A stretch of DNA of 51,930 nucleotides from an uncultured Rhizobium sp. (GTDB taxonomy: Bacteria > Bacteroidota > Bacteroidia > NS11-12g > UBA955), in the NCBI GenBank assembly GCA_964592635.1, contig CAZQFZ010000002.1:4956-56885 (forward strand). Direction: 5' to 3'. A model generated the notes under the pieces. That model searched no databases, had not been told where the DNA came from, and saw nothing but the letters and a program-made list of their open reading frames with translations. Below are positions 1,492-50,613 of the stretch, piece after piece; positions within the stretch are counted from its first letter, which is position 1, and each line of letters starts with the position of its first letter. Made by a program: the position numbers and the translations under genes.

Positions 1492-4092
1492 TTATTTTCT
1501 TTTTAATAAATTCTTGGTACTTAGTTTTGAACCTTTGGATTTTTCTTGTGGATTTTCAAAAGCTTCCCAACGCTGATTACTTTCATCGATATCGGCAGTT
1601 TCGCGGAAAGGATCAATCACAATGCTTTGAACTTCTTTGTATTTCACAAATACTTTGCTGAATTTATCTTCATTTTTTCTCCAAATGTAAGCACTGATGT
1701 AATCTACTTCTGAAGTTCCATCCACATAGTTCCATTGAATGATGACGGGCATTACAGTTCCACCTACATTGCTAAAATTCAACTGATAGTAATAATTGTT
1801 TTTCAATGCAGTAAATTCCGCATCGGTAACTACATCGAAACCGCTCATTCGATTTACAGTTTGAATTTTTTGAGCGGTATCACGTTGTTGAATACGCTCT
1901 TCAGCCACTTCACCTTTGGTGTTCAAAGCACGGTAATAATATGTATCACGCAATGATGTATCCGTATCTACTGCGAAAATCATTCCTGCTGCCTTATTGC
2001 GCAAGCGAGAAACATGCAAGAAACGATCGTCTGCCATGGCTTGAGCTCTTCGAGGATTTCTGTTTCGGGGGATGTTTAACTGCTCATTCGTATTTAGTGT
2101 ATCTATTTTTACGGGTACACTGCTCGGATTGTTGAGCTTAAATGCCACCACTGAATCCAAACGAATATCTACTGGTTGAATGTCAAAAAACCATGCTCTC
2201 CAGAACCAATCTAAATCAACACCCGATGCGTCTTCCATCGAACGGAAAAAATCCGAAGGTCGAGGATGTTTGTAAGCCCATCTGCGACAATATTCTTTAA
2301 ACGCGTAATCAAATAATTCTCTACCCATCACCGTTTCGCGCAAAATATTCAAAGCTGTGGCCGGTTTTGCATAGGCATTCGGACCAAATTCGATGATATT
2401 TTCAGAATTGGTCATGATGGGTTCCAATCGCTCAACTGGAAGTTTCATGTAATCCACAATTTTGTGAGCCGGACCTCTTCTGGATGGGTAATTATTGTCG
2501 AATTCTTGTTCGGTCAAAAATTGTACAAACGTATTTAATCCTTCATCCATCCAACTCCAATGACGTTCATCTGAATTAATAATCATCGGGAAGAAATTAT
2601 GCCCTACTTCATGAATAATTACCCCAATCATTCCATATTTCGTAGCTTCTGTATAATTGCCAGCCGAATCAGTTCTTCCGTAGTTGAAACAAATCATTGG
2701 ATATTCCATACCACTGCTTGCTTCTACTGAAATGGCCACAGGGTATTGATAGGGGATAGTGTATTTGGAGTAGGTTTTGATAGTATGCGCAACTACCTTG
2801 GTAGAATATTTGTTGTATAATTTGTACGATTCTTTGGGGTAATAACTCATACACATTACTTTTTTACCCTCAACGTATTCAGGCATTGCGTCCCAAGTAA
2901 ATTTGCGCGAAGATCCCCAAGCAAAATCACGAACGTTTTTCGCTGAGTACTTCCACGTTTTGTATCCCAAACCATATACATCTAAAGCGTTCACTTGGTC
3001 TTTATTGTTGGGATCTACTGCACATGCCACATCAAGTTTAGAACTTGCGGCAGAGCAAGCTTTGTCATCCCCAAAAACCACGGAAATATTGCTTGGGTTG
3101 ATACGAATTCCTTTGCTTGATAGGATGTTTAAATAACTATTGATGTTAGAATTTACATCATCCAACGTTACAATCTGATTGGGGGTATTGACCTTTTTAG
3201 TTTGAATGGCTCTTTCAGTTTGGTTGAAACAACTGTTCCAACGATTCCATTGTTGAGCGCTCAACACCTCTTTATAGTTGGAACATTCTCCGGTTGCTGC
3301 AACAATATGGTCGGATGGAACCATGATATTCACATCAAAATCACCAAAAACCAATGAAAACTCTCCTCTACCAGTAAATTGTTTGTGATTCCAACCTTGG
3401 TAATCGCTGTAAACGCACATTCTAGGGTACCATTGCGAAATGGTGAATAAATCCGATTGACCATCGGGCATGAATTCGTATCCGCCGCGACCGCCCATGC
3501 GCATTCTTTCAGCAATTTTATAGCTCCATTTAATATTGAAAACGAATTTTTCTTTTGATTTTAATCCTTTGGGTAAATCAACACGCATCATGGTGTGATT
3601 GATGGTAAAGGGCAGTTTTTGGCCCTTGGCATCGGTAACACTCCAAATATTGGTGCCATAACCGTTCAATCTTTTTTGAACATCTAAATCTGAAACTTGA
3701 TCTGGAGTGATGGGTTCACTCACCTTACTTTCATTGAAGTAATTGTTTTCACCGTTGGGATTGTGCTCGTTTTCATCGAGTTGCAACCACAAATAAGTGA
3801 GAACGTCGGGCGAATTATTGGTGTAGGTGATGGTTTCTGAACCGTGCAATACGCGTCGTTGCTCATCTAAAACAGCCGAGATTTTATAATCCGCTTTTTG
3901 TTGCCAGTAGGCATGTCCAGGAGCGCCAGAAGCTGCCCGGTATTCATTCACATCCTCCAAAAGAGGTCCAATTTGCTCAAATCGATTTCCGTGATTGGAA
4001 CGGGGATTGTTAAATACATTTTGTCCAGTTAACAAAGAACCATTGAACAATAGCGTGCACCACAAGATGCCTTGGTGTAAAACTCGTTTCAT
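1492..4092 (-). CDS. M1 family zinc metallopeptidase, secreted
   Basis: Signal-peptide-like N-terminus; SGMEYP (GXMEN-like), HEVGH...WMDEG zinc motif, AYAKPA catalytic Tyr region. Confidence 0.92.
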   Translation of the reverse strand: MKRVLHQGILWCTLLFNGSLLTGQNVFNNPRSNHGNRFEQIGPLLEDVNEYRAASGAPGHAYWQQKADYKISAVLDEQRRVLHGSETITYTNNSPDVLTYLWLQLDENEHNPNGENNYFNESKVSEPITPDQVSDLDVQKRLNGYGTNIWSVTDAKGQKLPFTINHTMMRVDLPKGLKSKEKFVFNIKWSYKIAERMRMGGRGGYEFMPDGQSDLFTISQWYPRMCVYSDYQGWNHKQFTGRGEFSLVFGDFDVNIMVPSDHIVAATGECSNYKEVLSAQQWNRWNSCFNQTERAIQTKKVNTPNQIVTLDDVNSNINSYLNILSSKGIRINPSNISVVFGDDKACSAASSKLDVACAVDPNNKDQVNALDVYGLGYKTWKYSAKNVRDFAWGSSRKFTWDAMPEYVEGKKVMCMSYYPKESYKLYNKYSTKVVAHTIKTYSKYTIPYQYPVAISVEASSGMEYPMICFNYGRTDSAGNYTEATKYGMIGVIIHEVGHNFFPMIINSDERHWSWMDEGLNTFVQFLTEQEFDNNYPSRRGPAHKIVDYMKLPVERLEPIMTNSENIIEFGPNAYAKPATALNILRETVMGRELFDYAFKEYCRRWAYKHPRPSDFFRSMEDASGVDLDWFWRAWFFDIQPVDIRLDSVVAFKLNNPSSVPVKIDTLNTNEQLNIPRNRNPRRAQAMADDRFLHVSRLRNKAAGMIFAVDTDTSLRDTYYYRALNTKGEVAEERIQQRDTAQKIQTVNRMSGFDVVTDAEFTALKNNYYYQLNFSNVGGTVMPVIIQWNYVDGTSEVDYISAYIWRKNEDKFSKVFVKYKEVQSIVIDPFRETADIDESNQRWEAFENPQEKSKGSKLSTKNLLKRK

Positions 4093-4155
4093 TTTAGCGT
4101 AAAAGGTTGGGTTTTGAGTAAATAAATACTCGGACTGCGAATATAAACAATTCGC

Positions 4156-4881: not shown

Positions 4882-5508
4882 ATGAATCGTCTATTCTCCG
4901 GAATTCAATCTTACATTAAAAACAGATACATTAAATTTGGATTGTTGTGTGCCTTTACAGCACTCACTTTGGAAATAACATCGTCATTTATCAAACATCC
5001 CTTTTTTGTAGGTATCACCGATTTGAATGTAGATCTTCGCAATGCTAAGAGAGAAAGTTGGGAACTCAAAGTGAAATTATTTACCGATGATTTTGAGGCA
5101 GCTTTTCAAAAGGAAACCGGAGTTCGTTTGCCCAGCGATTTTCAAAACATCCCCCGAGAAAGCGAAGAAGGGAAAGTGCTTTATCCGTTGATGGAATCTT
5201 TTTTTAAAAAGAACTTAATCGTAACATGGTGGGTTTTGCAATTTTCACATAGCAAAAGAGAAGAATTGCCACTAGAATTGATTCATTTTCAACCCGCGGA
5301 GGAATCAACACAGTTTACGTTTACCATTAAATTGCCGCAGAAAAAATGGGTGGCCATGGCCAAAAGAACCGAAACTGTAAGAATTTATAATCGTTTGCTC
5401 ATGTCGTTCAAAAACGAACAAAAACACATTATTCACTGCACTTGGAATGGAAAACGAAAGAGTGATTATGTGGATTTGAATCGACCACAATTTGAGTGGG
5501 TTTTTTAA
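4882..5508 (+). CDS. DUF6702-like exported protein
   Basis: HPFFVGITD..., KLFTDDFE, IYNRLL...EQKHIIH pattern; TAACTTTG -7 box at 4797-4804. Confidence 0.7.
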   Translation: MNRLFSGIQSYIKNRYIKFGLLCAFTALTLEITSSFIKHPFFVGITDLNVDLRNAKRESWELKVKLFTDDFEAAFQKETGVRLPSDFQNIPRESEEGKVLYPLMESFFKKNLIVTWWVLQFSHSKREELPLELIHFQPAEESTQFTFTIKLPQKKWVAMAKRTETVRIYNRLLMSFKNEQKHIIHCTWNGKRKSDYVDLNRPQFEWVF

Positions 5509-5520
5509 TTATTAACAAAC

Positions 5521-6576: not shown

Positions 6577-6688
6577 AGATGGAGGAGTAGAAATATGTTA
6601 GAAATAGTTACTTAGAAACCCAGAATATTGAATTCATTTTTGCCGTTAAATGTTCGTTTGTTCAAGTACAAACAGAAAATCCATCAAC

Positions 6689-7915
6689 ATGCTTAATCCA
6701 TCCATTTTTTTGTTTTCGGGGGAAGTTCGGTCAGGTAAAACTACTGTTTTGCGACATTGGATTCGATTGATGCAGGCGAATGGAAAGCGGTTTGCGGGTG
6801 CGGTTTCTTTAGACTCAAAACCCGCAGTTAATTCAACAGCGAGGCAATTGGATCAGTCAACCATTCAACATCCCCGCAAATCAATGAATTTGAGGAGGTT
6901 GATGAATGTTAGTACCCAGAAATGCGTGGAATTCGAATTGGAATCTGAAAACGTAGCGGATGAATTTTGTGTAAAAGTGGGTCGGTTTGTATTTAGCAAA
7001 AGTGCTTTTGCTCAAGGAATTCAATGGCTTCAAAACGGACTGCAAGATGAAAATACGGATTGGTTGGTTTTGGATGAAATTGGAATGCTCGAATTACATC
7101 GAAACGAGGGATTTGAACCTGAATTGACTCGTTTTTTTGAGGTGTATCATCATACAGTAGAACTCCGAAAAGCTCAGGGTAAGCCATTTCCTAAACTAAT
7201 TTTGGTGGTCCGAGAAGCATTAGTATCTGATTTTGAATTGCAACACGGCTCGCGATTCGAAATTTGCAAAGTGTTTAAACATACCATTTTTGAGTTGGAT
7301 TCATTTCCCTTTGGAAATGGGTCAAACATACCTGGCTTGTATGGTTTGGTGCTGGGCGGTGGACAAAGCAGTCGCATGGGATATCCCAAATACCGTATCA
7401 TTTATCAAAACCATCAACCACAATGGCAGCGACTTACATTAGCGATGCAGGAATGGGTAGTTCACTGCGGAATTAACATCCCCAAAGAAAATGAGAGCGA
7501 ACCATCATCGGGTAATGAAGAATTGCCTTCCAATTGCAGCTGGGAATTTGATCATGATACTTGGGGTAATTCGGGTCCTATCGGCGGTATATTGAGTTAT
7601 TTTGAATATTTAAATGATTCTGAAATACAGGCAATGCTGGTGGTTGCAGTAGATTATCCGTATTTGCGGGACGCTGCATTGAAGGAATTGATGCATGTAC
7701 ACCGCTTGACCAAGAAATCCGTTTTTTATTTAGATGATTCGACCCATATCATCAATGGGTTGATCGGAGTGTATTCCAAGCAACATTTACTTGAATTGCG
7801 GACTTGGTTTAAGAAAGGAAACCAGTCTCTCAGTCGATTTCTAAAAGAAAGATCCGCTGATATTTTTTTGCTCACGCCTCAGAATTGGATTGAATTGACG
7901 AGTGTTGATGAATGA
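6689..7915 (+). CDS. mobA: Fusion of P-loop NTPase (NTPase_1/THEP1-like) and MobA-like molybdenum cofactor guanylyltransferase
   Basis: N-half: GEVRSGKTT (Walker A), VGRFVF, LVLDEIGMLE (Walker B). C-half: LVLGGGQSSRMGYPK, GPIGGI, VVAVDYP. Start taken at MLNPS (alternative 6650). Confidence 0.8.
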   Translation: MLNPSIFLFSGEVRSGKTTVLRHWIRLMQANGKRFAGAVSLDSKPAVNSTARQLDQSTIQHPRKSMNLRRLMNVSTQKCVEFELESENVADEFCVKVGRFVFSKSAFAQGIQWLQNGLQDENTDWLVLDEIGMLELHRNEGFEPELTRFFEVYHHTVELRKAQGKPFPKLILVVREALVSDFELQHGSRFEICKVFKHTIFELDSFPFGNGSNIPGLYGLVLGGGQSSRMGYPKYRIIYQNHQPQWQRLTLAMQEWVVHCGINIPKENESEPSSGNEELPSNCSWEFDHDTWGNSGPIGGILSYFEYLNDSEIQAMLVVAVDYPYLRDAALKELMHVHRLTKKSVFYLDDSTHIINGLIGVYSKQHLLELRTWFKKGNQSLSRFLKERSADIFLLTPQNWIELTSVDE

Positions 7916-9717: not shown

Positions 9718-10089
9718 ATGAAGATTAGAATAAAAGGAAATTCGATTCGTTTGCGATTGACCAAAACCGAAGTATCCAATTTTGAGACAACGGGAGTATT
9801 GGCAGAAACAACTCAAATGATCGGAGGTGAGTTTGTGTACACGTTAAGGGCATCATCGGATGTAGCAACGCTTTCTGCAGAATGGAAATCTCCCAACCAG
9901 ATACAATTTCTTATGCCTGTGGATTTAGCTAGAGAATGGACAACTACTGACCATATAGGTTACCAACATGTGTTGCAGCTTCCCAATGGTGCAGAATTGT
10001 TTTTATTGATTGAGAAAGATTTTGTTTGCTTAGATAATACATTTGAAGATCAAAGCGATAATTATCCCAATCCCAACGCAGCTTGTTAA
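9718..10089 (+). CDS. DUF7009-like protein, associated with FdhF/YdeP clusters
   Basis: MKIRIKGNSIRLRL...LLIEKDFVCLD...DNYPNP; TATTTTTG -7 box at 9704-9711. Confidence 0.8.
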   Translation: MKIRIKGNSIRLRLTKTEVSNFETTGVLAETTQMIGGEFVYTLRASSDVATLSAEWKSPNQIQFLMPVDLAREWTTTDHIGYQHVLQLPNGAELFLLIEKDFVCLDNTFEDQSDNYPNPNAAC

Positions 10090-10162
10090 TCAAGCATAAC
10101 CGAAAATGGCATAGGTAAAAGTGAAGTTGATTTCCAATTGTTAAACCTTCCCCCGAAAAAAT

Positions 10163-13355: not shown

Positions 13356-13435
13356 TGTCTATTGTTTTTCTGTTTTTTTGGACAATTGATTTACAAACTA
13401 ATAAAACACAACATTGTTTAGTACTTTGAATAATT

Positions 13436-21518: not shown

Positions 21519-22433
21519 TCAAAACGAATGGATTTGGAGAACGTTAATTGGAGGAATTGATTTTGCAGCGTTCATGGTTTCAACTCCTTCCGAATTTAAA
21601 TGTTTCAACAATTGTTTGTAGGAAACGCTGATTTCTACATATCCCATTGCATATGGCCCAATTTCATAAGGTGAGTAATGAAATGTAACGCCTTTGGAAC
21701 CGAAAGAAAAGTTGTTGGTCAGTAAGTCGCTTTCCGAAACAGTCCACGGTGATTCTTTGTAGTATTTTTTGAAATTCTTGGAAAGCAGCTTTACCATAGC
21801 TTGATCGGAAGTGGATTTAAAAAAATGGTGGTAATTTACCGATTCACCAGTAGTATTATTCAATATAATTTGTGCAGCATAGGAATTGGGGTGAGCAGCA
21901 CCTCCCCAGTATTCACTGTAATTATAATTAAGCCAAATGTAATTTCCCAAAACAGCAGCAAGAGTTAAGTGACTTTCGATATTGACCATAGATTCTAAAG
22001 CGATGGTATCCATCCATTGGGTCAATCCCTCGAAATCTTGAGAAAAGCTGGTCTCGTATTGATTCAAATGAAAAGTGGGTGCCAAAAGTTCTTTGGTTTT
22101 ATTCACAACAAGGGTGTCGTTCGTGCCGTTATGGTCAAATCCGATACAATTCAAATGTTCGAAAATGAGAGAACAAGGCATGGTATCAAACATAGAAAAG
22201 TAATTGTCTGGATCTGCGAATTTTGCCGAATCATATAGATGTGTTCTCACAATATGATAACTTTTGTCCAACTGTTCAAAAGTAAAATTTCCTATTTTGA
22301 TTCGAGTTGGGTTTTCTGCTTCAATTAGTTTTTTACTTTCTGTCTGTGCTATGATATCATGAGTAAGAAAAAGAATTACTATGAAGATTGCTTTTTTGAT
22401 TATGTGTAGGGTTTGGAGATTTGGGGATTGCAT
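21519..22433 (-). CDS. RsiV/DUF3298 family exported protein
   Basis: YWGGAAHPN and NFSF...GVTFHYSPYEIGPYAMG motifs. Confidence 0.8.
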   Translation of the reverse strand: MQSPNLQTLHIIKKAIFIVILFLTHDIIAQTESKKLIEAENPTRIKIGNFTFEQLDKSYHIVRTHLYDSAKFADPDNYFSMFDTMPCSLIFEHLNCIGFDHNGTNDTLVVNKTKELLAPTFHLNQYETSFSQDFEGLTQWMDTIALESMVNIESHLTLAAVLGNYIWLNYNYSEYWGGAAHPNSYAAQIILNNTTGESVNYHHFFKSTSDQAMVKLLSKNFKKYYKESPWTVSESDLLTNNFSFGSKGVTFHYSPYEIGPYAMGYVEISVSYKQLLKHLNSEGVETMNAAKSIPPINVLQIHSF

Positions 22434-25035: not shown

Positions 25036-27486
<2,451 letters not shown>

Positions 27487-37761: not shown

Positions 37762-38673
37762 GTGAATAGATTTAATTTACCTGTTTTTATTTTCTTGATG
37801 GGTATCCTATCAGCAACAATTCCAGTAGTTAACGCTCAACATTGTCAATACGATTTTGTAAAGCTAATCGGCGTGGTTCCTTTTTCGGGGGATACCCAGA
37901 ATGTGGTGAAAGGCTTGGAAATTCAAGTTGTATTTCATACCACGGATCAGCCTTTGGAACCCCGTTTGATTTTTGATACAGAGTATAAATATCCCCCAAA
38001 AAATAAATACACCAACCAAGAAACGGGTGAATTCAAAAAACTGAAATTACAGCAATTCTCCTGTGATTTTGGATTTACGAAAGATCATTACACCGTGATG
38101 TACAACAGCGGACAAAAACATCCAGTCAAATTTTATGTATTGTTACGAGATATCGACGGCGAGAAAAATGGTGGATTTTTCGGAACTCGGATTATTGAAA
38201 TCGAATCAAAAAAGCACACAGCAGGACTAGATACTGTGTATTTAAAAAATCATATAGGGAAATACGATTCCTTGGATTTACGATTAGGTAAATATCCGTG
38301 TTTGTCTTTATGTGGCACCAAACCCAAAGCCGAAAAGCCCTTACAAAAATACGAACCACTTTACATTCAATTGAATGATCAATTGGAATCCTTCGACCCA
38401 AAGAAATTCGGTGCATTCGAGGATATTCAGTTTGAAAAATGGAAAGGAAACCATGGAATTTGGGAAGTGTTGAGTCGTCAGAATAGCATGCAAACTGAAA
38501 CCAATTACTATCAATGGTATTCAGATTCCCTAACATTCAAGCGCGAATGGAGATGTGTTAAGTCCACTCTATGTTGGCATGTTTTTCCACATTCAGAACG
38601 AGTGGATTGCGTAACTCAAGAACTTCGAAATGGTCAATGGATTGAAACCCAAATAATTCATGGATGCGAATAA
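37762..38673 (+). CDS. Secreted hypothetical protein
   Basis: 303-aa ORF, signal peptide ending VNA-Q; TACCTTTG -7 box at 37731-38. Confidence 0.75.
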   Translation: MNRFNLPVFIFLMGILSATIPVVNAQHCQYDFVKLIGVVPFSGDTQNVVKGLEIQVVFHTTDQPLEPRLIFDTEYKYPPKNKYTNQETGEFKKLKLQQFSCDFGFTKDHYTVMYNSGQKHPVKFYVLLRDIDGEKNGGFFGTRIIEIESKKHTAGLDTVYLKNHIGKYDSLDLRLGKYPCLSLCGTKPKAEKPLQKYEPLYIQLNDQLESFDPKKFGAFEDIQFEKWKGNHGIWEVLSRQNSMQTETNYYQWYSDSLTFKREWRCVKSTLCWHVFPHSERVDCVTQELRNGQWIETQIIHGCE

Positions 38674-40613: not shown

Positions 40614-41420
40614 ATGAATGTTAAGTTTGTACTTCTAAGTTTTGTTTTTTGGGGGACATCCTTCACCCTCTCAGCCCAAAACAAGACTTTAAAAACGCGA
40701 GATGGTATGCCTATCGGCACCAGGACTGAGTTTATTGACGCTTGTCGCAAAGGCGCTGGACAAGAATTAATTGAAATTGAAGGTGTTCAATTGGCTACGG
40801 TCGACTATTGTGCATGTGTTTGCGATAATTTGATTCCGAAAGTGGATAGTCGCGAGTTGATTACAGCCGTTCAAGAAGGGAATATGGTGGCTTATTTACT
40901 CAACGATAGCAATCGCGCAATTGTTATGGAATGTGTCTTGGCAAACATGAAAACCAATCCGAATTTTGCAAACATCCCCGAAAAAAAATATTCAACCAAT
41001 GAATACAAAAAAGAGGATATAGTTGGTAGCGACGAGTTTACGGAATTGAATTTAAAGGAATTGCCGAATTCCGTTTTTACAGTATCTATTACAGTTGATG
41101 GGGTGATTCGCAACTTTGTTTTCGATACCGGTGCCAGTGAAATGATTATCGACTCCGATCTCGAACGCGAATTATTGTTAAACGGTTCAATTGGTCGCGA
41201 AAATTACCTCGAAAAACGACCATTTACTTTGGCCAATGGCGATAAAGTTACAGCTCAAATGATTCGAGTAAATAACGTTAGAGTGGGAGATTACGTAGTG
41301 AACAATGCGGTGATTGCTGTAATTGATCGTGGTGATTTGCTTTTGGGGACTGGTTTTCTGAAGAAATTTAAGAACTGGAGTTTGGACAGTCAGAATAAGT
41401 TAATCAAAGTGTATAAATAA
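40614..41420 (+). CDS. Secreted retropepsin-like aspartic protease
   Basis: Signal peptide; FVFDTGAS, LANG, LLLGTGFLKKF; Cys-rich N-terminal domain (YCACVC). Confidence 0.88.
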   Translation: MNVKFVLLSFVFWGTSFTLSAQNKTLKTRDGMPIGTRTEFIDACRKGAGQELIEIEGVQLATVDYCACVCDNLIPKVDSRELITAVQEGNMVAYLLNDSNRAIVMECVLANMKTNPNFANIPEKKYSTNEYKKEDIVGSDEFTELNLKELPNSVFTVSITVDGVIRNFVFDTGASEMIIDSDLERELLLNGSIGRENYLEKRPFTLANGDKVTAQMIRVNNVRVGDYVVNNAVIAVIDRGDLLLGTGFLKKFKNWSLDSQNKLIKVYK

Positions 41421-42661: not shown

Positions 42662-44872
42662 TTATATCTTGATGAATTTCAATACGCTGTAACCATGAGT
42701 ATGTTGAGCGTGAATTTCATAAATTCCGACTGACAAATTAGAAACATCCAATTCAGCTACCGAATCTACATTGGCGTAATGTTGTACAATTTCGCCAGTT
42801 GGCAATCTTAACCAAATTTCCAGTTTGAACCCCGAAGTGTTTTGCAAATACAAAATCGATTCTGTTGGATTGGGAAAAATACTTAATCCATGAATGGGAG
42901 AATGATTTTGAGATAAACGATTGATAGTAAAATTGTACCAATCCGATTCGCAAATGCATTTTGCACCTAAGCTGTTCTGGGCTTTCACTTTAATTTTATA
43001 GGTTCCATCACTGGGTAATTGAAATAATGCATTCGCATTGATTCCGCTTGATTTGATGGTACCAATTCCTTCCACAATAAAACTGTAATCCACGTTGTTC
43101 TGTCCACCGATATTTCCAATGGAGTCTTTGGGTTGAACATTAACTCCATAATAATATGTTTTGTAATCTGTTTTTGCCGAAACTAGGCAAGTTCTTGGCT
43201 TTTCCTCAATATCTACTGTTTTGATAATGCTGTCCTTGCAATTGGCTTCCCCCAAAATAAATAAGCGCACATTATATGTGGTAGTTTTTTTGACGGAATA
43301 CGATTTTTTAACGGTGCTATCGAATGTGTTGTTCTTATCGCCAAAATTCCAACTAAGCAGTTTGATTTTTCCATAATCATTTTTGGATGCGGAATTAAAC
43401 CGAATGGTATCACCGGAGCAGAAATTAGACGCAGGCACGGTGGTGAAATTTGCTTTTGGCTTTGAAAATACTGGGTGCAAAATGGTATCTGATTGCAGGC
43501 AATTGCGGTTGGTTCGAGCTGAAACAACAATTTGATTTATACCGCTACTGCTGAATTTATGCTTAAAAGAGGATTCATAAAAGAAATTGTCGTTGGGCAA
43601 TTGCCACTGTATTTCGTCTATACTGTCCTTCGATAGTCCTAAATTCATTGCCAATTTTACAGAATCATAGATGCAAGTGGAGTCTATTTTAACTGTAAAG
43701 TTTGGCATATCATACACGTAGATGTTTTTTGAAGTTGAATCATTGCAGTTTTTCTCGCTCGTACAAATGAGTTGAACACCATATTTTCCGGGTTTTGTAA
43801 GGGAATAATCGAAGTTGGTCAAGGTGTCTTTGTAGTTTGCGGGGGACGTTATTTTCCAATTAAATTTCAAATTTCCGTTGGCAATAAATGAATTGTTGGT
43901 AAAAAAGAACGCATTGTTTTTCAAACATTGAGTACTGTCGTTGATTGAAAATAGTGGATGTGGCTTGGGATATATTATAACAGTAGTAAAGGAAGTATCT
44001 TGACAACCGTATTTTCCCACTGCTGTAAATTTGAATTTCTCGGTATCCGAAATTCCATTTATAGTAACATCTTTGGTTTTACCTACTGTATCTGAATTGA
44101 GAGTCCAAAAACCAGTTGAAGTTGTTTTTGCTTGAAGTTTAATTTTTTCATTTTCGCAATAGGGACCTAAATTGCTGGTGGTAACAGATGTGCTATATTC
44201 CCAAAATGAACTGTAATTGAGTGAAGTGCAGATAGAAGTGTAGGGGTCTGTATGCAAATAGTCGAATAATAAAATGGCTGGAATCCATTTGTTGCAGCTG
44301 CCGTAAGAAGCGCAATTTAGAGCATCTGAAGGCCCGTATGCTTCCAATAATAACCGAACATTATAATCGCTGTTGGCACGAATAAAATATCCCGAATCGA
44401 ATCGAGTTAAACCAATGAAATTATTGGAATTGTCAAATAGATTGACCGTAAGTCGTACAGGAATACTCTTGGTAGTAAAACTATTTGTGTTGCTGCTAGT
44501 TAGGTATTTATAGTTGGTATTGCCTGTAAATACCAATCTACCTGAATCGGGTTTTGACAAACTGTTGCTGAGTACGAGTCTATTCATACCGCTACATGAC
44601 ATATTAGGTGGCTGATTATTAGCACCATTGATCACATTTTGAAGAGTGTCTTTGAGTCCCCAATACCAACAAGTACCAAAATTCGACCAGCTATCTGATT
44701 GAAATGAAAGTACTTGTCCATTAGTGGTGTTGGCCCAACTTCTAACGTCTGAAAACTGTGGGGTAACTTTAACTACTTTGGGAATATTGATTCTTTTTTG
44801 TGAAATACCCGAATTCCATCCCCCAAAAATAGAAAGAAACAGAAACAGGATTTTTAAACGGGTTGAGGTCAT
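42662..44872 (-). CDS. T9SS type A cargo protein with PKD domains
   Basis: Signal peptide; PKD-like P.ANF...C..F.S.S..WNFGD..Y.V.L; C-terminal IFPNPT...DVSNLSVGIY...LKFIKI. Confidence 0.88.
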   Translation of the reverse strand: MTSTRLKILFLFLSIFGGWNSGISQKRINIPKVVKVTPQFSDVRSWANTTNGQVLSFQSDSWSNFGTCWYWGLKDTLQNVINGANNQPPNMSCSGMNRLVLSNSLSKPDSGRLVFTGNTNYKYLTSSNTNSFTTKSIPVRLTVNLFDNSNNFIGLTRFDSGYFIRANSDYNVRLLLEAYGPSDALNCASYGSCNKWIPAILLFDYLHTDPYTSICTSLNYSSFWEYSTSVTTSNLGPYCENEKIKLQAKTTSTGFWTLNSDTVGKTKDVTINGISDTEKFKFTAVGKYGCQDTSFTTVIIYPKPHPLFSINDSTQCLKNNAFFFTNNSFIANGNLKFNWKITSPANYKDTLTNFDYSLTKPGKYGVQLICTSEKNCNDSTSKNIYVYDMPNFTVKIDSTCIYDSVKLAMNLGLSKDSIDEIQWQLPNDNFFYESSFKHKFSSSGINQIVVSARTNRNCLQSDTILHPVFSKPKANFTTVPASNFCSGDTIRFNSASKNDYGKIKLLSWNFGDKNNTFDSTVKKSYSVKKTTTYNVRLFILGEANCKDSIIKTVDIEEKPRTCLVSAKTDYKTYYYGVNVQPKDSIGNIGGQNNVDYSFIVEGIGTIKSSGINANALFQLPSDGTYKIKVKAQNSLGAKCICESDWYNFTINRLSQNHSPIHGLSIFPNPTESILYLQNTSGFKLEIWLRLPTGEIVQHYANVDSVAELDVSNLSVGIYEIHAQHTHGYSVLKFIKI

Positions 44873-44875: not shown

Positions 44876-47569
44876 TTAGTTTTTAACTTGAAATTTTACA
44901 GTATTTCTGCCCTTGGAATGAATGATTTCTGCTATATAAATTCCTGATGTTAGGTTGGAACAATCTATTTGAAATTGGTCGATTGTATAGTTCATTTCAT
45001 TAACGGATTTGCTGTTATGCATTATGGGAGTAAAGGAGTTGTTTGCTTCTATTGAAAGTATATTGGCGGTTGAAATATCCAATAATTTTTTGCCCTGCAA
45101 GGAATAAATGCTGCACGACTTTAAATTGATGGGATGGTTGAAATGAATATTTAATAACCCATTGGTAGGATTGGGGTAGGCCAACAAACCTATAGAATTG
45201 TGCGATTTTAATAATTGATTTGAAGCAGAAAAATTGGAATCTAAAGCAAAGTCAAAACTAAAATCATCCAAAATTGCAAAAGCCCTTTTCCCCGAATTGG
45301 TGTTTATTTCAGACTTTAAGTAGATTGAAATACTTGCATCAGTAGCCAAATTTTGGGTGTTGTAGTATTCAATAGGGAAATTAAATGAGCTCCAACTATC
45401 TGAGGCATTTACGATGGTATTTCTTGAAAATCCAATGATTTGTGTATCCTTGAAAATGTAAGATTCTATAAACAAGGTATCGTAAATTGATTGTGGGAAA
45501 AACTGAAAATAACCATGCAAGCTTCGGTGGTTGGAGGTGATTTTTGTTTTTCGAGGGAAGTGGGTATTGCTATCATTTAGCAATTGTCCGTACATCAAAC
45601 TACCCATAGATCTGCTCGAATGAAGTTCGAATTTAACTCCGGTACTCTTTGAATGGTAACCCCTGGTAGGTTCCACGATGGTTTCGCTTAGATCTAAGTA
45701 ATTGCGACTGCCCCAATTCTTCAACTCAAAGGAATTTTGAATATTCCAATTGGAAAAACCTGGATTAGGCAAAGGATTGCTGGAATTGTTGGTCCATACC
45801 GAATCCAACCACAAAATACTCGATGTATCGGTTCGATTATTGAAGTAATCAGTAGAAAGTACAATTAATATTAATGAGTCGTAAGAACTTGAATTCAACC
45901 TGGTTGGAAATTTCAAAATAGTATCTTGATGTACCATACCAGACCAGCGGTAGTCGATTTGCTTAAATTCTTTTTGTGCCGTGTTTTTAAATCGCAAACT
46001 CAAGTATGCTGAATCGCTTTTGGCTATTTTATACCGACATTTTAAATAAACGGTATCGATTTTTTGTTGTAGGGGGATCCCTCCTCGAATGGAATCGTTT
46101 TGAACGTTTGCTAAAAACACACCACCGGGTTCGTTGAGGTGATTCGATTTTATTTCAATCCATTGGTTATTTAAAATGGATTTTACATTGCCAACAGTTC
46201 CCCAATTCTCCAGTGTTTTGGTTTCTGTGGTGTCCCAAAATTCAAAGTCAAAATTGGTGTAATTGTCGAAACGCAAATCCAATTGGATTTTTTCAGATCG
46301 AACAGAAACGTCTTTGTAATATGCGATTAATTGAAATTGATATACCCCCGAAACAAGATTTAAATATGAATTGATGAGCACAGGTTCGAATCCTGTCAAT
46401 TTACCCAAGAATATACTGTCTTTTTTGGAGTTCATACCTTCATAAATCAAATAGCAAGAGGGATTTAGACCCTTGGGTTGTATGTAATTGATGATTTTGA
46501 TTTCTCTTTTTTTTGTGACTTTAATTTCAGAAATCTGCACAGTAGGTATTTGATAACTGCTGTTGTAAAATGTTATAGTTCTACCCTGATTTCCACAAAT
46601 TATGCCACTTCCGGGATGGATTAAACTCAGGTTATTTAATGTTCTATTATCCGAATTTTGATTGGGTAATTGGATATTTAATAGCGTTTTACAAGTGTCT
46701 TTGGAGTAATAAAGATGGCTTTTTGAAAGAATATAAGCTTCACCACTTAGAAATCGTATTTGAGAGAAATAACTTCCTTTTTCGCTGTATCGTTTGGTAA
46801 AATTGTGGTTTGTATGATTGTAGATCCAAATAGTTTGTTGGGTATCGGAATTATTGATTTCTTGTCCCGAAATAAAGAACTGTTCTTTCGTAATCCAAGC
46901 CATAGAATAAAAGGAAAGTTTAGAAGACGAAGAAAGAGTTAAGGACTCCCAGTTGTTGCCTCCATTTTGAGAATGCAGTAAAATTCCAGTTTGCGTAATT
47001 ATCCAAAGTTTCAAGGAATCAGAGTGCAAAAGGTACATTGGTTTACCCCAGTTACTATCCACAACAGTTTGAAAACTCTCAGCTTCATTTTCTGTTTTGA
47101 GCACAATAGTTTTTTTATTGGTTTCATTCCACCCGATAACTATACCTTTTTTGCTATTGGGAAATGATGCTGCCGTAAATTCAGTATTGGAATGATTGTT
47201 TAGGCGTGATAGATTCCAGGTAGTTCCATTATCCGTGCTAAATCCAATGGTGCCAGACCTTCCAAGTGTCAACAACTTGTTTGCATGGATCTGAACAATG
47301 CAGCTTAGCATTCCCCCCAATTGGTCTTTGACGATGTTCCAAGTTTTACAGGTATCGGTACTTCTATAAATCCCACTAATGGAATCATTTCTTAGCCAAC
47401 CACCAACCATAATTACACTAGCATTGGGTGCAACTAGTATGTCTTTTCCGTTTCTGTATCTAGGTAATTCGGAAGTATTAAATTCAAATGTTTGGGATAA
47501 AACAGGCTTAACCCCAAAGATGAAAAATCCAATCAGCAGGGTAATTCTGATTCTTTTGAAAAAGGTCAT
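44876..47569 (-). CDS. T9SS type A cargo protein with N-terminal BNR/YCF48-like propeller
   Basis: Asp-box repeats STDTCKTW, STDNGTTW, SQNGGNNW; NFDFEFW and NPGFSNW domain starts; C-terminal YPNPTNG...SNLTSGIY...KFQVKN. Confidence 0.85.
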   Translation of the reverse strand: MTFFKRIRITLLIGFFIFGVKPVLSQTFEFNTSELPRYRNGKDILVAPNASVIMVGGWLRNDSISGIYRSTDTCKTWNIVKDQLGGMLSCIVQIHANKLLTLGRSGTIGFSTDNGTTWNLSRLNNHSNTEFTAASFPNSKKGIVIGWNETNKKTIVLKTENEAESFQTVVDSNWGKPMYLLHSDSLKLWIITQTGILLHSQNGGNNWESLTLSSSSKLSFYSMAWITKEQFFISGQEINNSDTQQTIWIYNHTNHNFTKRYSEKGSYFSQIRFLSGEAYILSKSHLYYSKDTCKTLLNIQLPNQNSDNRTLNNLSLIHPGSGIICGNQGRTITFYNSSYQIPTVQISEIKVTKKREIKIINYIQPKGLNPSCYLIYEGMNSKKDSIFLGKLTGFEPVLINSYLNLVSGVYQFQLIAYYKDVSVRSEKIQLDLRFDNYTNFDFEFWDTTETKTLENWGTVGNVKSILNNQWIEIKSNHLNEPGGVFLANVQNDSIRGGIPLQQKIDTVYLKCRYKIAKSDSAYLSLRFKNTAQKEFKQIDYRWSGMVHQDTILKFPTRLNSSSYDSLILIVLSTDYFNNRTDTSSILWLDSVWTNNSSNPLPNPGFSNWNIQNSFELKNWGSRNYLDLSETIVEPTRGYHSKSTGVKFELHSSRSMGSLMYGQLLNDSNTHFPRKTKITSNHRSLHGYFQFFPQSIYDTLFIESYIFKDTQIIGFSRNTIVNASDSWSSFNFPIEYYNTQNLATDASISIYLKSEINTNSGKRAFAILDDFSFDFALDSNFSASNQLLKSHNSIGLLAYPNPTNGLLNIHFNHPINLKSCSIYSLQGKKLLDISTANILSIEANNSFTPIMHNSKSVNEMNYTIDQFQIDCSNLTSGIYIAEIIHSKGRNTVKFQVKN

Positions 47570-47671
47570 GATATGACAAAATGATAAACGTACTCAAAAC
47601 TAAACTAAATCACAAACAAGTTTGTACCGAAAAATTGGTACATTTTGCGAATGAACATCCCCCGAAAAAAA

Positions 47672-47694
47672 AGGCCACCCCAAGGGATGGCCTA
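47672..47694 (-). terminator. Intrinsic terminator downstream of the T9SS gene remnant
   Basis: Minus strand AGGCCATCCC-TTG-GGGTGGCCT followed by a T run. Confidence 0.7.
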
Positions 47695-47716: not shown

Positions 47717-47836
47717 TTATTGCTTTATGAATTTGACATGAGCGGTTTTTCCAAGTGAATGAATAGTCAAGAAGTAGATTCCGTTAGGAAGGGTTTCAAC
47801 ATTTAATTCTTGGTCATTCGTAAAATGTGTACAAAT
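47717..47836 (-). pseudogene. 3' remnant of a T9SS-secreted protein gene
   Basis: Hand translation ICTHFTNDQELNVETLPNGIYFLTIHSLGKTAHVKFIKQ*, the second half of a T9SS CTD; in-frame TAA immediately upstream and no ATG. Confidence 0.8.
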
Positions 47837-47972
47837 TTAGTCAATTTTAACACTTCGTTAATATATAACTATTTTTCACTCCTTGAAAATTGTAAATTCT
47901 GTATTGGATTCATTCGAACCAAATCATTTTTACTCGTATTTTTGTTTCTTTCTTATAACCCTATTTTTATTA

Positions 47973-49388: not shown

Positions 49389-50613
49389 TTTTTTTGGTTT
49401 TTTATCGGGTGACGATGATTCGGTAGTGGTTATAGATCTTCACTATTCCATCAATCGGATCAAATCCATGAATGAGCGTTTGAATCCTACTGGTTTGAAC
49501 GCCATTGCCATTAAAACCAATCCTTTGGTTGAAGTTCTTCGAAATTTATATCAACAAGGTGCCGCGTTTGAAGCTGCTTCCATGGGTGAAATTGCCATTG
49601 CCAAGGCAGCTGGAGTTCCCAATAATCGCATCGTATTTGATTCGCCGGTGAAAACTAAACAGGATTTATTATGGTTGAATTCTTACTTTCTCGGGGGATA
49701 TATTAACGCAGATTCATTCGAGGATTTGCAAAATATGCAACACTTTTCGGAAGAAATTCAAATCGGACTCCGATTGAATCCATCTATGAATATAAATTCT
49801 CCTAATTCGCTCAATGTCAGTGGGGCAAATTCAAAATTCGGTGAATTGTTTCAGGAGGTCACCCAAGATTGGATTGATCTGTTAACGAGAATTAGCCGTT
49901 TGGATGGTTTACATGTGCATCAGGCCTCTCAAAATAGTGATTTTTCCAATACCATTAAAGGAATTCGCAAAGTGGTGGACCTAGCGAACGCCCTTCCCCC
50001 GAAAAAAATAAAATTCATCAATATTGGCGGAGGATTGGCATTCGATTATTATCAATCCAAAGAAGCAGATATCGATTTGTATTTTTCTGAATTGAAAGCA
50101 ATTTGTCCGGAATTATTCGATGGAACCTACCAGTTGATAACCGAATTTGGACGGTACTATTATGCAGGTGGGACTGCCGTTTATTCGCGTGTTGAACACG
50201 TTAAAGAAATAGCGAATGGCCGAAAATTGGCCATCATACATGTAGGCGCGGATATGTTTTTGCGGGAATCGTACAACAATTCAGATTGGTATCATCGATT
50301 AAGTGTTTTAGATGCAAGCGGTCATGAAGTAAACACAAATCAAAGGAGTTTGACCTATAATTATGATATCGGTGGACCCTTGTGTTTTGCGGGCGATATT
50401 CCATTTAGAAATCATGATCTTCCTGAAATTCAAGTAGGTGATTGGTTGAAAATACACGATGCAGGAGCCAATACGTTTGCCTTGTGGTCTAGACACTGCA
50501 GCAGGCCTTTTCCTTTGGTTTTGGGATACTTGAATGGTGAATATTGTGTATTAAAACATCGTGAAACGCTACACGATATAGTGAATTTTTGGAGCGATGA
50601 AAGAAATTCATAA
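49372..50613 (+). CDS. Diaminopimelate/ornithine decarboxylase family enzyme (PLP fold type III)
   Basis: AIKTNP (PLP Lys), EAASMGE, SKFG, HVHQASQ, NIGGG, EFGRY, GPLCFAGD, DAGA. Confidence 0.88.
   Translation: MHPVTDFFGFLSGDDDSVVVIDLHYSINRIKSMNERLNPTGLNAIAIKTNPLVEVLRNLYQQGAAFEAASMGEIAIAKAAGVPNNRIVFDSPVKTKQDLLWLNSYFLGGYINADSFEDLQNMQHFSEEIQIGLRLNPSMNINSPNSLNVSGANSKFGELFQEVTQDWIDLLTRISRLDGLHVHQASQNSDFSNTIKGIRKVVDLANALPPKKIKFINIGGGLAFDYYQSKEADIDLYFSELKAICPELFDGTYQLITEFGRYYYAGGTAVYSRVEHVKEIANGRKLAIIHVGADMFLRESYNNSDWYHRLSVLDASGHEVNTNQRSLTYNYDIGGPLCFAGDIPFRNHDLPEIQVGDWLKIHDAGANTFALWSRHCSRPFPLVLGYLNGEYCVLKHRETLHDIVNFWSDERNS

Follow-up and report, generated by a model that had tools for sequence, protein, structure and literature searches.

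The Window and Its Genes

We analyzed a 51,930-nt stretch of contig CAZQFZ010000002.1 (the window, whose positions serve as motif coordinates throughout) from assembly GCA_964592635.1, an uncultured Rhizobium sp. placed by GTDB in Bacteroidota; Bacteroidia; NS11-12g; UBA955. The window carries genes for, among others, an M1 peptidase, a CPA2 antiporter, a LysR/OxyR-type protein, an HlyD-type membrane-fusion protein and an SbtA-type bicarbonate transporter. One of its proteins has a T9SS C-terminal domain, which fits the Bacteroidota assignment.

Scattered through these genes and the DNA between them is the 9-nt word CCCCCGAAA. A first-pass annotation had counted 14 exact cores, and all 14 are present, eight on the forward strand (10150, 21276, 24805, 30651, 36002, 46345, 47659, and 49996) and six on the reverse strand (2063, 6714, 12286, 20581, 24001, and 37883). 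Its estimate of well under one expected copy agrees with dinucleotide shuffling of the window, in which copies averaged 0.34 and never exceeded 2, with 14 reached in 0 of 100 shuffles. The T directly before the core in 13 of 14 copies (46345 has an A), the CAT or CTT prefix and the A-rich tail are likewise real, as are the gene contexts named for several copies (OxyR insert, SbtA loop, membrane-fusion protein tail, CPA2 linker, and M1 peptidase). The insert in the LysR/OxyR-type gene that holds the copy at 24001 occurs only in this genome (G000) and its sister species G002. Allowing at most one mismatch from the 10-mer TCCCCCGAAA, the window holds 28 matches against 3.47 expected (table 1). 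Six of eight near matches proposed earlier (5151, 37993, 40647, 43249, 44820, and 49689) are among these, and the other two (32194 and 40976) are more than one mismatch from the 10-mer.

Table 1. Exact and one-mismatch copies of the motif in the window
Form	Position	Strand	Context
Exact TCCCCCGAAA	2063..2072	-	Sense, M1-peptidase gene, relative position 0.78
One mismatch, TCCCCCGAGA	5150..5159	+	
Exact TCCCCCGAAA	6714..6723	-	Antisense, near 5' end of gene 6650-7915
One mismatch, TCCCCAGAAA	8063..8072	-	
One mismatch, TCCTCCGAAA	8501..8510	-	
Exact TCCCCCGAAA	10149..10158	+	Intergenic, just upstream of called start codon 10163
Exact TCCCCCGAAA	12286..12295	-	Antisense, molybdopterin oxidoreductase gene, 0.92
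One mismatch, TCCACCGAAA	19180..19189	-	
Exact TCCCCCGAAA	20581..20590	-	Antisense, CPA2 gene, 0.60; core kept in G002 (68%-identical alignment)
Exact TCCCCCGAAA	21275..21284	+	Sense, CPA2 gene, 0.90; kept in G002 and G004
One mismatch, TCCCTCGAAA, hybrid of dialects A and B	22026..22035	+	
Exact TCCCCCGAAA	24001..24010	-	Sense, in ~75-aa lineage-specific insert of LysR-type gene; kept in G002
Exact TCCCCCGAAA	24804..24813	+	Short doubtful ORF or intergenic; kept in G002
Exact TCCCCCGAAA	30650..30659	+	Sense, tail of HlyD-type membrane-fusion gene, 0.92
Exact TCCCCCGAAA	36001..36010	+	Sense, Sbt_1 bicarbonate-transporter (SbtA-type) gene, 0.43
Exact TCCCCCGAAA	37883..37892	-	Antisense, near 5' end of gene 37798-38673
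TCCCCCAAAA, identical to dialect C	37992..38001	+	
One mismatch, TCCCCCTAAA	40375..40384	-	
TCCCCCAAAA, dialect C form	40647..40656	-	
One mismatch, TCCCCAGAAA	42225..42234	+	
TCCCCCAAAA, dialect C form	43248..43257	+	
One mismatch, TCCCCCGCAA	43837..43846	-	
TCCCCCAAAA, dialect C form	44819..44828	+	
One mismatch, TCCCTCGAAA, hybrid of dialects A and B	45549..45558	-	
Exact 9-mer core, A for T before (ACCCCCGAAA)	46344..46353	+	Antisense, T9SS-CTD protein gene
Exact TCCCCCGAAA	47658..47667	+	Intergenic
One mismatch, TCCCCCGAGA	49689..49698	-	
Exact TCCCCCGAAA	49995..50004	+	Sense, Orn/DAP/Arg decarboxylase gene, 0.50

Genome-Wide Enrichment and Anatomy of the Motif

The motif is not confined to the window. 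In the 2.57-Mb genome G000 (a metagenome-assembled genome, or MAG, 94% complete; GC content 37.7%), CCCCCGAAA is one of the seven commonest 9-mers, with 349 copies (177 on the forward and 172 on the reverse strand) against 15-21 expected under Markov models of orders 1-4. Under the same models TCCCCCGAAA occurs 342 times against 5-8 expected and CATCCCCCGAAA 155 times against ~0.4, and the second commonest form is TCCCCCAAAA (184 copies). Core density is about one per 7.4 kb, and that of TCCCYCRAAA about one per 4.4 kb. G000 thus contains what characterizes the DUS and USS of Neisseriaceae and Pasteurellaceae, a short (9-12 nt) nonpalindromic word in hundreds of copies far above expectation.

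The whole motif is ~30 nt long, comprising a G at -10, CAT, the core and then an A-tract (consensus approximately G-AA-n3-A-CAT-CCCCC-GAAA followed by ~10 A-rich bases). Crude ORF calls place 135 core copies in sense, 154 in antisense and 60 in intergenic DNA, with all six frames occupied, and the G at -10, the CAT prefix and the A-rich tail are common to every frame class and to the intergenic copies. Within coding sequences, the 133 sense and 148 antisense copies compare with 15.3 and 10.7 after synonymous-codon shuffling and with 8.7 and 4.9 after codon-order shuffling (20 replicates each), an excess of ~10-fold over codon-preserving nulls. The signal is therefore in the DNA and not in the proteins, as the first-pass annotation had argued, and the genome-wide enrichment that it anticipated holds against Markov and codon-preserving nulls alike.

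Distribution and Strand Preference

Core copies per 10-kb bin are Poisson-like (mean 1.37, variance 1.37), and of the 45 contigs measuring 20 kb or more, all but one hold a core. Near-equal orientations and a whole-chromosome spread are again as in DUS and USS, with the caveat that 63% of copies in G000 fall on the G-rich strand. The motif also accumulates at permissive sites, as those words do. Intergenic DNA holds 17% of copies and makes up 10.3% of the genome; the protein segments flanking copies in genes share 45.2% identity with distant orthologues versus 53.9% for random windows of the same alignments, with gaps near 32% of copies versus 20% of random windows (n = 91 for both comparisons), and at 30 of 125 sites the alignment with the orthologue does not reach the copy. 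Low-GC islands (35 kb in seven bins) hold no family motif where ~7.7 would be expected, in a small, post hoc sample of a MAG that includes no prophage or ICE. Two islands lack it, one for polysaccharide synthesis that encodes glycosyltransferases, a flippase and EpsG (C9:1-20000) and one with sulphate-activation-type genes (C43:1-10000); they may reflect the depletion in acquired DNA for which a test had been suggested. Inverted core pairs, which had been proposed for terminators, are absent within 100 bp in G000, so that there are no terminator hairpins; five direct pairs occur.

The suggested test of strand bias relative to the replichores has a mixed outcome, the even overall count standing beside the bias in G000. 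Here copies on the G-rich strand outnumber those on the other by 163:94 in one count and 158:93 in another (31:11 among intergenic copies), independently of gene orientation, and short C-rich control words lean the opposite way, which points to some replication-linked force. Elsewhere in the genus, where all compared genomes are multi-contig assemblies and GC skew on MAG contigs is a proxy only for replication direction, the ratio is 17:11 in G002, and there is no such lean in G018 (29:26, and 35:35 across a skew switch) or G139 (7:12). The strong co-orientation with replication of Chi/KOPS-type motifs (~75% or more) is not seen in G000, G018, or G139.

More generally, the motif could be a recombination signal with replication polarity, Chi-like or otherwise, which would be read on one strand by an AddAB-type helicase-nuclease and would protect and repair self DNA after breaks. 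The leans in G000 and G002 favor it, taxa differ in their Chi sequences, the density of E. coli Chi resembles the ~1 per 4-7 kb of the motif, and G000 encodes one AddAB-type PD-(D/E)XK nuclease-domain protein (a 1081-aa open frame). However, the polarity is weak and not general, RecC was not found, some congeners have no such motif, and known Chi sites, 5-8 nt long and few-fold enriched, fall far short of the motif in information (at least 12 nt plus flanks) and in excess (50-400-fold). We regard this explanation as very unlikely.

Conservation and Dialects

In a sampled 400 kb of G002, 43 G000 sites could be aligned, of which 28 have the exact core, 12 are one base off, 3 are at least two bases off and none has a gap. 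Core identity is 95% versus 82% in the flanks, and the exact core is kept at 65% of these orthologous sites versus 21% expected. Across the genus the motif occurs as three dialects, A (ATCCCCCGAAA), C (ATCCCCCAAAA), and B (GTCCCTCAAAA), related by single-base steps along the LigA tree. Thirteen genomes carry dialect A at 54-344 copies; seven genomes carry dialect B at 265-464 copies and A at just 3-20; and dialect C has 44 copies in 400 kb of G139 against 1.8 expected. The B clade is monophyletic (100/99) with G139 as its sister (93/93), and dialect A is found in both major clades. The family is limited to this one genus. In 98 genomes from 14 other genera of the family TCCCYCRAAA has at most 45 copies, about the background level of a reversed-pattern control, and five species of the same genus have no motif. 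The relatives thus have the dialects that had been sought, clade-specific, following the phylogeny and absent from neighboring taxa, as in DUS and USS.

These data also bear on the least probable of the explanations considered, that the motif is a functionless by-product, either the trace left by a very small element, mobile or inserted, or a context-specific bias of mutation or gene conversion. One copy does lie inside a lineage-specific insert, alignment gaps are more frequent near motif sites, and there are the close direct pairs. Against this, we found no similarity between copies beyond ~30 nt, and outside 14-20 nt at the motif the LysR-type insert does not match other copies. Where orthologous sites differ between G000 and G002, each of the 15 changes is a base substitution, and a mutation bias would neither hold the core so far above its flanks nor yield three discrete dialects. 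Longer conserved flanks had been named as what would point to a MITE or REP element; the flanks here are not of either type, and a repeat of this kind (a longer unit with inverted repeats, mainly intergenic and spread by insertion) was rejected on the end of conservation at ~30 nt, the 83% of copies in genes and turnover by substitution with no gaps in 43 sites.

The conservation and the dialects could also be produced by some other genus-specific DNA protein inside the cell, co-evolving with the motif under weak per-site selection; candidates would be a nucleoid-organizing or segregation factor, a self-marker for a defense or repair system, or a DNA-modifying enzyme. Dialects, conserved orthologous sites and an asymmetric ~12-nt core that tolerates mismatches by degrees would follow from any co-evolving reader, an architectural protein could use the A-tract flank to bend the DNA, and the leading-strand lean in G000 suggests a link to replication. 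Cyanobacterial HIP1, a hyper-abundant short motif of unknown function, is a precedent. A HIP1-type palindrome, tied to a cognate methyltransferase or VSP-type repair, was itself rejected here, the motif being nonpalindromic. On the other side, 289 of 349 copies are in genes, in both orientations and preferentially in poorly conserved segments, which indicates a word tolerated where it is harmless rather than sites for regulation or architecture. Several hundred 12-nt sites would be hard to keep by per-site selection without drive (a population-genetic argument), and Vsr was not found in G000, which speaks against both HIP1 and a methylase or VSP-repair drive. The sites known to serve architecture or segregation are for the most part palindromic and occur in small numbers, and the motif is wholly absent from the five congeneric species. 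An intracellular reader seems to us a somewhat unlikely, tentative alternative.

A Candidate Uptake Apparatus

Candidate genes for DNA uptake are widespread in the genus: among 27 genomes, ComEC is found in 24, DprA in 23, and a ComEA-like HhH protein in all. A comF-type gene lies directly upstream of a gene for a T9SS-CTD protein of ~1060-1095 aa in G000 and G018, and the protein itself occurs in 26 of 27 genomes. Over 291 residues it has a predicted fold weakly like OB-fold DNA binders (pLDDT 67.6, TM 0.2-0.3), and no residues of this region follow the dialects. The competence genes do not track the motif, since species without it also have ComEC, the ComEA-like protein and this surface protein intact. 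Pilins, which the first-pass annotation had named beside the com genes, and other type IV pilus or T2SS parts were not found: T2SSE exceeds its cut-off in 0 of 27 genomes, and secretin, T2SSF, and the N_methyl pilin are absent from the 94%-complete G000. A preprint gives the minor pilin ComP as the DUS receptor and ComN as the predicted USS receptor (bioRxiv 10.1101/2025.10.24.684340). Reading by a type IV pilus minor pilin is thus a DUS/USS property that G000 does not share, and the only receptor type known or predicted for such words is missing here.

Taking together the observed enrichment, DNA-level nature, anatomy, distribution, conservation, phylogenetically ordered dialects, and gene inventory, we give about even odds (probability roughly 0.5) that the motif is a signal for self-DNA uptake like DUS and USS, with an apparatus that has no pilus. 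Uptake as the selective agent, and the identity of the reading protein, are what we infer. The motif would be a species-group-specific self-DNA word, and the DNA receptor of these bacteria would favor DNA carrying it. Tagged fragments would then be taken up and recombined more often, and the bias would spread the word via ordinary point mutation and recombination, the word settling where harm is small, in intergenic DNA, linkers, tails, and poorly conserved protein segments. If the preference of the receptor shifted, the genome-wide word would shift too, in single-base steps such as those from A to C to B. The apparatus could not be the type IV pilus of Neisseriaceae and Pasteurellaceae and would need to resemble the pilus-independent Riemerella system, with ComEC, DprA, ComF, an HhH/ComEA-like protein, and Bacteroidota-specific surface proteins. 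Of the first-pass proposal, a DUS/USS-type signal or another binding site, enrichment, flanks, dialects, com genes, and tentatively the islands speak for the uptake reading; the lack of type IV pilus parts and inverted pairs and the mixed strand bias mean that it is supported in part. A density below that of classical DUS and USS and the competence genes of motif-less species also count against it.

Comparison with Known Systems

Chi and KOPS are likewise over-represented, taxon-specific and spaced at one per several kb, and their leading-strand lean has a counterpart in G000. The lean of the motif is weak and absent in other dialects, however, and the motif is much longer, far more enriched and missing from some congeners.

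With the DUS of Neisseriaceae the motif shares a 10-12-nt nonpalindromic word, a possible depletion in likely acquired DNA and dialects one or two bases apart that follow the phylogeny (compare Frye et al. 2013, PMC3630211). It differs in that DUS are read by a pilin whereas no pilins were found here, in having no terminator pairs, and in having only three dialects found so far, all in one genus. DUS are also not known to have an A-tract flank, unlike the motif here.

The USS of Pasteurellaceae do have an A/T-rich flank, and classical DUS and USS alike occur at ~1 per kb. Further likenesses to USS are a short asymmetric core, hundreds of copies equally on both strands, random spacing, copies in genes in all frames and preferentially in poorly conserved segments, clade-specific types, and orthologous sites kept between species (general USS properties from bioRxiv 10.1101/2025.10.24.684340). 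The sequences are unrelated and belong to different phyla, the density of the motif is ~5-fold lower, it has no inverted terminator pairs, and its host has no type IV pilus and hence no ComN-kind pilin receptor.

Transformation of the Riemerella type occurs in the same phylum. In R. anatipestifer it involves ComEC, DprA, ComF, RecA, an HhH protein, and a DUF5689 surface protein, a set in which reportedly none matches known transformation machinery proteins (PMC8459023). R. columbina prefers self DNA, favoring its own in competition, and its k-mer screen gave A-rich low-complexity words only (PMC7965970). Riemerella is not known to have a specific uptake sequence. In the genus studied here DUF5689 exceeds the Pfam cut-off in just 3 of 27 genomes, is sub-threshold or absent in most and has no match in G000. 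The likeness lies in ComEC, DprA, ComF, and the HhH (ComEA-like) protein, and in the large surface protein encoded beside comF, in which a DUF5689/OB-fold region is weakly indicated. A few bacteria use self-recognition DNA tags in DNA uptake, and the pattern of the motif resembles those words, now in a phylum in which, to our knowledge, no tag of the DUS/USS type has been known.

An abundant asymmetric word

The first-pass annotation had counted by eye 14 exact copies of a C-rich core, CCCCCGAAA, in the window, and all 14 are present where it placed them, eight on the forward and six on the reverse strand; the T that it noted before the core precedes 13 of them, giving the form TCCCCCGAAA. Its estimate of less than one expected copy agrees with dinucleotide shuffles of the window (mean 0.34, maximum 2 in 100 shuffles). 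Its eight near matches fared less evenly, six being among the 28 matches to TCCCCCGAAA found in the window with one mismatch allowed (3.47 expected) and the other two falling outside this set.

The proposed genome-wide check confirmed the enrichment. The source genome G000 (2,569,438 bases in 197 contigs, 37.7% GC), in which the window occupies C2:4956-56885, contains 349 cores, 177 on the forward and 172 on the reverse strand, against 15-21 expected under Markov models of order 1-4. Under the same models TCCCCCGAAA is observed 342 times where 5-8 copies are expected, and CATCCCCCGAAA occurs 155 times against a Markov expectation of ~0.4; expectation rises at order 5 because a model of that order already holds the motif's own 6-mers. 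The core ranks among the seven commonest 9-mers of G000, the rest of the list comprising A/T-rich words. An artefact of the assembly or of the window is ruled out by the presence of the word or its dialects in 22 of the 27 genomes of the genus.

Aligning 347 copies into a logo resolves a CAT prefix (T at -1 in 98%, A at -2 in 72%, C at -3 in 62%), a weaker element further upstream (C at -12 and -11, G at -10 in 60%, A at -9 and -8) and a strand-specific A-rich tail downstream (50-60% A from +9 to +17), and the word is non-palindromic. Single-base variants are enriched in a graded manner in G000: the 12-mer ATCCCCCGAAAA has 159 copies and its G-to-A variant 57, compared with 0-2 copies when the T or either of the first two C bases is changed. 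Longer conserved flanks, suggested earlier as the mark of a MITE or REP element, were not seen, the logo of 347 copies holding no information outside about -12 to +18. Such an element is further ruled out by an insert in a LysR-type gene of the window, which matches the rest of the genome over only 14-20 nt round the motif, and by the differences at orthologous sites, which are substitutions. Past the A-run of one intergenic copy lies a short GC-rich inverted repeat (GGCC...GGCC) with the potential to fold into a hairpin.

Placement in the genome

A crude ORF call gave 2098 ORFs covering 89.7% of G000, by which 60 copies are intergenic (17% of copies in 10.3% of the DNA), 135 lie in the sense orientation (27, 81 and 27 by frame) and 154 in antisense (10, 48 and 96). 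Each frame class, and the set of intergenic copies too, shows the same CAT prefix, A-rich tail and upstream G. When synonymous codons were shuffled within each gene (20 replicates), 15.3 sense and 10.7 antisense copies were expected in CDS, and 133 and 148 are observed; shuffling codon order (20 replicates) gave expectations of 8.7 and 4.9. With all six frames occupied and counts approximately 10-fold above nulls that keep the proteins, a peptide motif is ruled out and the first-pass view of a DNA-level signal stands.

Copies are scattered as if at random (mean 1.37, variance 1.37 in 164 ten-kb bins), and only one of the 45 contigs of at least 20 kb is without one. The search for inverted pairs in terminators, also proposed earlier, returned none within 100 bp in G000, which rules out a terminator role; there are five direct pairs.

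Motif-bearing proteins were aligned to ~1.2 Mb sampled from three other species of the genus (G018, G003 and G139). In the nine-residue flanks on either side of the residues coded by the motif, identity is 45.2%, compared with 53.9% in random windows of the same alignments, and gaps occur near 32% of the motif sites and in 20% of the random windows (n = 91); 30 of 125 coding sites fall outside the aligned span. By position within ORFs, 58 copies fall in the first tenth and ~26 in each tenth elsewhere, a figure to be read knowing that ORF starts may be over-extended. In a post hoc test on two low-GC islands (see table), 35 kb contained no motif of the family where ~7.7 were expected.

Two genes of the window deserve mention in their own right. 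The LysR/OxyR-type regulator carries a low-complexity insert of ~75 aa (residues ~174-249) that splits the halves of its substrate-binding domain; it is present in G000 and its sister species G002 and missing from the syntenic gene of G004, G018 and G003, and its DNA has no second copy elsewhere in G000. The second gene encodes an 814-aa protein which, judging by conserved peptides, we take to be a catalase-peroxidase-like enzyme. It has relatives ~70% identical in many phyla, including Proteobacteria, Verrucomicrobia, Acidobacteria and methanogenic archaea, and this spread suggests wide horizontal transfer of the gene.

Conservation in a sister species

G002 shares ~81.6% DNA identity with G000 (over 315 kb). 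Among 43 motif sites of G000 alignable to 400 kb sampled from G002, the exact core is kept at 28, is one base off at 12 and is at least two bases off at 3, with gap differences at none of the 43. Cores are 95% identical and flanks 82%, and exact retention (65%) compares with 21% expected from mean identity. The window copies at 20581, 21276, 24001 and 24805 are all kept, in alignments only 68-81% identical overall. Differences by substitution alone, together with the excess identity of the core, indicate that point substitution both creates and erodes copies, and that existing ones are maintained in the face of drift. We consider it very improbable that words held in this way are a functionless by-product.

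Some segments of 3-5.5 kb are 96-97.5% identical between the two genomes, against the mean of 81.6%; they include ruvB, dapA and ligA, and the LigA protein is 100% identical. They represent either recent exchange of core genes between two species with the same form of the motif or mis-binned contigs.

Three dialects within one genus

The main new result is that the motif exists in dialects. The comparison of relatives proposed in the first-pass annotation uncovered three words, A, B and C, related by single-base steps and each abundant in different species. For dialect A, TCCCCCGAAA, the counts are 342 in G000, 344 in G002, 317 in G004 and 54-177 in ten more genomes of the genus, compared with 1-20 in the remaining ones and 0-6 in 16 genomes of a sister family; a reversed-pattern control gave 0-5 per strand. 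De novo k-mer ranking of 400 kb of G018 recovered TCCCTCAAA (70 copies, 4.6 expected) and TTTTGAGGGA (57 copies, 1.7 expected), with a single copy of the CCCCCGAAA core. The corresponding dialect B, TCCCTCAAAA, reaches 265-464 copies in seven genomes, each of them poor in A, and 14-40 in the A genomes. Dialect C, TCCCCCAAAA, was found in G139 (44 copies in 400 kb, 1.8 expected) and shares the ACAT prefix; it is one base from A and one more from B, and its form is the second commonest variant in G000 (184 copies).

The degenerate pattern TCCCYCRAAA occurs 27-53 times in five genomes of the genus (G003, G006, G008, G012 and G019), against 136-619 times in the other 22, and at most 45 times, like the control, in 98 genomes of the 14 other genera of the family. 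Ranking of k-mers in 400 kb of G003 gave no comparable word, and no dialect of its own was found there, the best word, TGGGATTTTGG, scoring z = 23 where dialects elsewhere score 30-60. It is the only notably over-represented word in that sample (16 copies, 0.46 expected). G018 also carries a separate, longer repeat containing GGTCCCCGTCCAGAAGGTGGCGGATTC (~13 occurrences in 400 kb), probably a REP/MITE-like element or a repeated piece of a gene.

A maximum-likelihood tree of one gene, LigA, was midpoint-rooted and covers 23 of the 27 genomes, leaving out G012 and G020 (no match) and G008 and G014 (split). The B clade is monophyletic (100/99) with G139 as its sister (93/93, on a long branch); next to these come a high-density A clade (G000, G002 and G004) and then a second A clade (G005, G013, G023 and G024). 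The other half of the tree joins low-density A species with the motif-less G003, G006 and G019. On the simplest reading A is ancestral and gave rise to C and then B by single-base steps, and the motif was lost in some lineages.

Competence genes and a candidate reader

Of the competence genes that the first-pass annotation had named, ComEC, DprA and a ComEA-like protein were found and pilins were not. ComEC (PF03772) was detected in 24 of the 27 genomes, DprA in 23 (the miss in G003 is at a contig end) and a membrane-anchored HhH protein, ComEA-like, in all 27. The search for parts of a type IV pilus or T2SS came back negative: no genome of the 27 has T2SSE over the cut-off, and G000, which is 94% complete, yielded no secretin, T2SSF or N_methyl pilin. 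DprA of the motif-less G019, a single MAG, is broken up over two frames, as ORFs of 105 and 255 aa, and may be a pseudogene or an assembly error.

Bacteroidota can evidently transform without pili, going by two Riemerella studies. In R. anatipestifer, a transposon screen reports ComEC, DprA, ComF and RecA to be essential for transformation. The same screen picked up four proteins not homologous to any established component of that machinery, namely a surface protein with DUF5689, an outer-membrane protein with CarboxypepD_reg, an HhH protein and a protein with DUF1343 (PMC8459023). R. columbina favours its own DNA in competition, and the k-mers described in the text of that study are only low-complexity and A-rich (PMC7965970).

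In both G018 and G000 a gene for a 1060-1095-aa protein directly follows a comF-type gene (DZR_2 plus PRTase), the two ORFs overlapping in G000. This protein has three Calx-beta domains, a T9SS C-terminal domain and a region with weak matches to DUF5689 or OB-folds, and is present in 26 of the 27 genomes, which makes it a candidate for DNA binding at the cell surface in this genus. Residues 640-930 were modelled with AlphaFold from an alignment of 23 sequences (mean pLDDT 67.6), and the model retrieves the OB-fold DNA binders HIN200 with dsDNA, RPA70, Stn1 and POT1/TEBP in Foldseek (E 1e-5 to 1e-3); with TM-scores of only 0.2-0.3, the OB-fold assignment applies at fold level only. No residue of the OB region is consistently dialect-specific, the two B subclades differing from each other, and none of these genes follows the motif in presence or in dialect; ComEC, the ComEA-like protein, DprA and the comF-adjacent protein also occur in motif-less species.

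A fast-evolving polytopic membrane protein without a Pfam family (25-28% identity between G018 and G000) is encoded between the ComEA-like gene and ComEC in 12 of the 27 genomes, exactly the clades densest in motif (A1, G139 and B). Its presence follows phylogeny and is therefore no evidence either way for a link to the motif.

Coordinates of features in the source genome (G000, including the window) and other genomes of the genus (C, contig; L, locus handle)
Feature	Genome	Position	Locus
comF-type gene and T9SS-CTD protein	G000	C13:~9921-13951	L259:659-4689
comF-type gene and T9SS-CTD protein	G018	C7	L250:4669-8624
Polytopic membrane protein	G018	C4	L223:6738-7634
Polytopic membrane protein	G000	C52	L226:16597-17577
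DprA in two ORFs	G019	C12	L239:370-1469
Low-GC island: glycosyltransferases, flippase, EpsG	G000	C9:1-20000	
Low-GC island: GTP_EFTU-type and PAPS_reduct-type genes, as in sulphate activation	G000	C43:1-10000	
Segment near-identical to G002	G000	C44:11389-16861	
Segment near-identical to G002	G000	C63:3198-6154	
Segment near-identical to G002	G000	C63:11312-15083	
LysR/OxyR-type regulator	G000	window 23434-24585 (-)	
814-aa protein	G000	window 25042-27486 (+)	
Intergenic motif copy	G000	window 47658-47667	
GC-rich inverted repeat	G000	window 47668-47690	
Sample containing the GGTCCCCGTCCAGAAGGTGGCGGATTC repeat	G018	C1:1-400000	

Strand polarity and rival readings

Strand bias relative to the replichores, another of the proposed checks, is present in G000 and absent from G018 and G139. 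The direction of replication was judged by GC skew, no more than a proxy on MAG contigs. In G000, with counting confined to places where |skew| is at least 0.04, the motif strand coincides with the locally G-rich strand at 163:94 (63%). The lean is present in intergenic copies (31:11), in lagging-strand genes (65:31) and in leading-strand genes (67:52), so that gene orientation does not account for it; C-rich control words of short length show the opposite lean (CCCCC 616:839). G002 gives 17:11, dialect B in G018 29:26 (35:35 over a skew switch at ~110 kb) and dialect C in G139 7:12. With a leading-strand lean in one clade and balance in others, we regard a Chi-like signal as very improbable, Chi and KOPS being replication-polar motifs.

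The lean of G000 does not fit neatly. As a feature of one clade it counts against uptake, as does the finding that no gene is distributed like the motif. According to the main rival to uptake, the motif is the site of a different protein, one that works within the cell and binds or processes DNA sequence-specifically. We rate this rival as unlikely overall.

Significance and comparison with known uptake sequences

Uptake sequences have been described for two proteobacterial families only, according to a 2025 preprint (10.1101/2025.10.24.684340), and the literature that we searched held no description of one in Bacteroidetes, Flavobacteria or Bacteroidota, or of this motif. We tentatively propose that the motif may represent a DNA-uptake-sequence system, the first one outside the Proteobacteria, in which self DNA of an uncultured Bacteroidota genus is tagged and the tag is read by a Riemerella-type pilus-independent apparatus and not by a type IV pilin, with the three dialects reflecting receptor-motif co-evolution in single-base steps from A to C to B, loss of the tag in some species and, as candidate reader, the comF-adjacent T9SS-CTD protein with its predicted OB-fold. 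Were this so, the phylum and the word would both be new to uptake sequences, and probably the receptor as well. A third independent case, in a phylum that transforms by an apparatus devoid of pili, would mean that tags for self DNA arose more than once, with unlike machinery behind them. The outer-membrane step of DNA uptake in Bacteroidota would become easier to approach, and the dialects would form a natural series in which to study a receptor and a genome-wide motif changing together. In practice, adding the motif to DNA could make these uncultured or hard-to-engineer freshwater bacteria transformable, and the motif also serves as a marker, of use both in binning and in recognising foreign DNA within these genomes. 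Even if its function is not uptake, a 12-nt word with several hundred copies and clade-specific variants demands a novel reader protein.

Biased DNA uptake via a pilus-independent apparatus would be the likeliest agent behind the motif, with a probability that we put at about one half, and it is taken as such on the strength of the match to the hallmarks of DUS and USS, the self-DNA uptake words of the Neisseriaceae and Pasteurellaceae. Unlike the classical DUS and USS, the motif has a lower density and no terminator pairs, and the known type of receptor is missing. Common to both, as the hallmarks are set out in the introduction to the 2025 preprint (10.1101/2025.10.24.684340), are the extreme excess of an asymmetric 12-nt word, its equal use of the strands and its random spacing, together with a possible absence from likely foreign islands (here by a post hoc test), placement driven by tolerance, maintenance at orthologous sites and clade-specific dialects that change in single steps.
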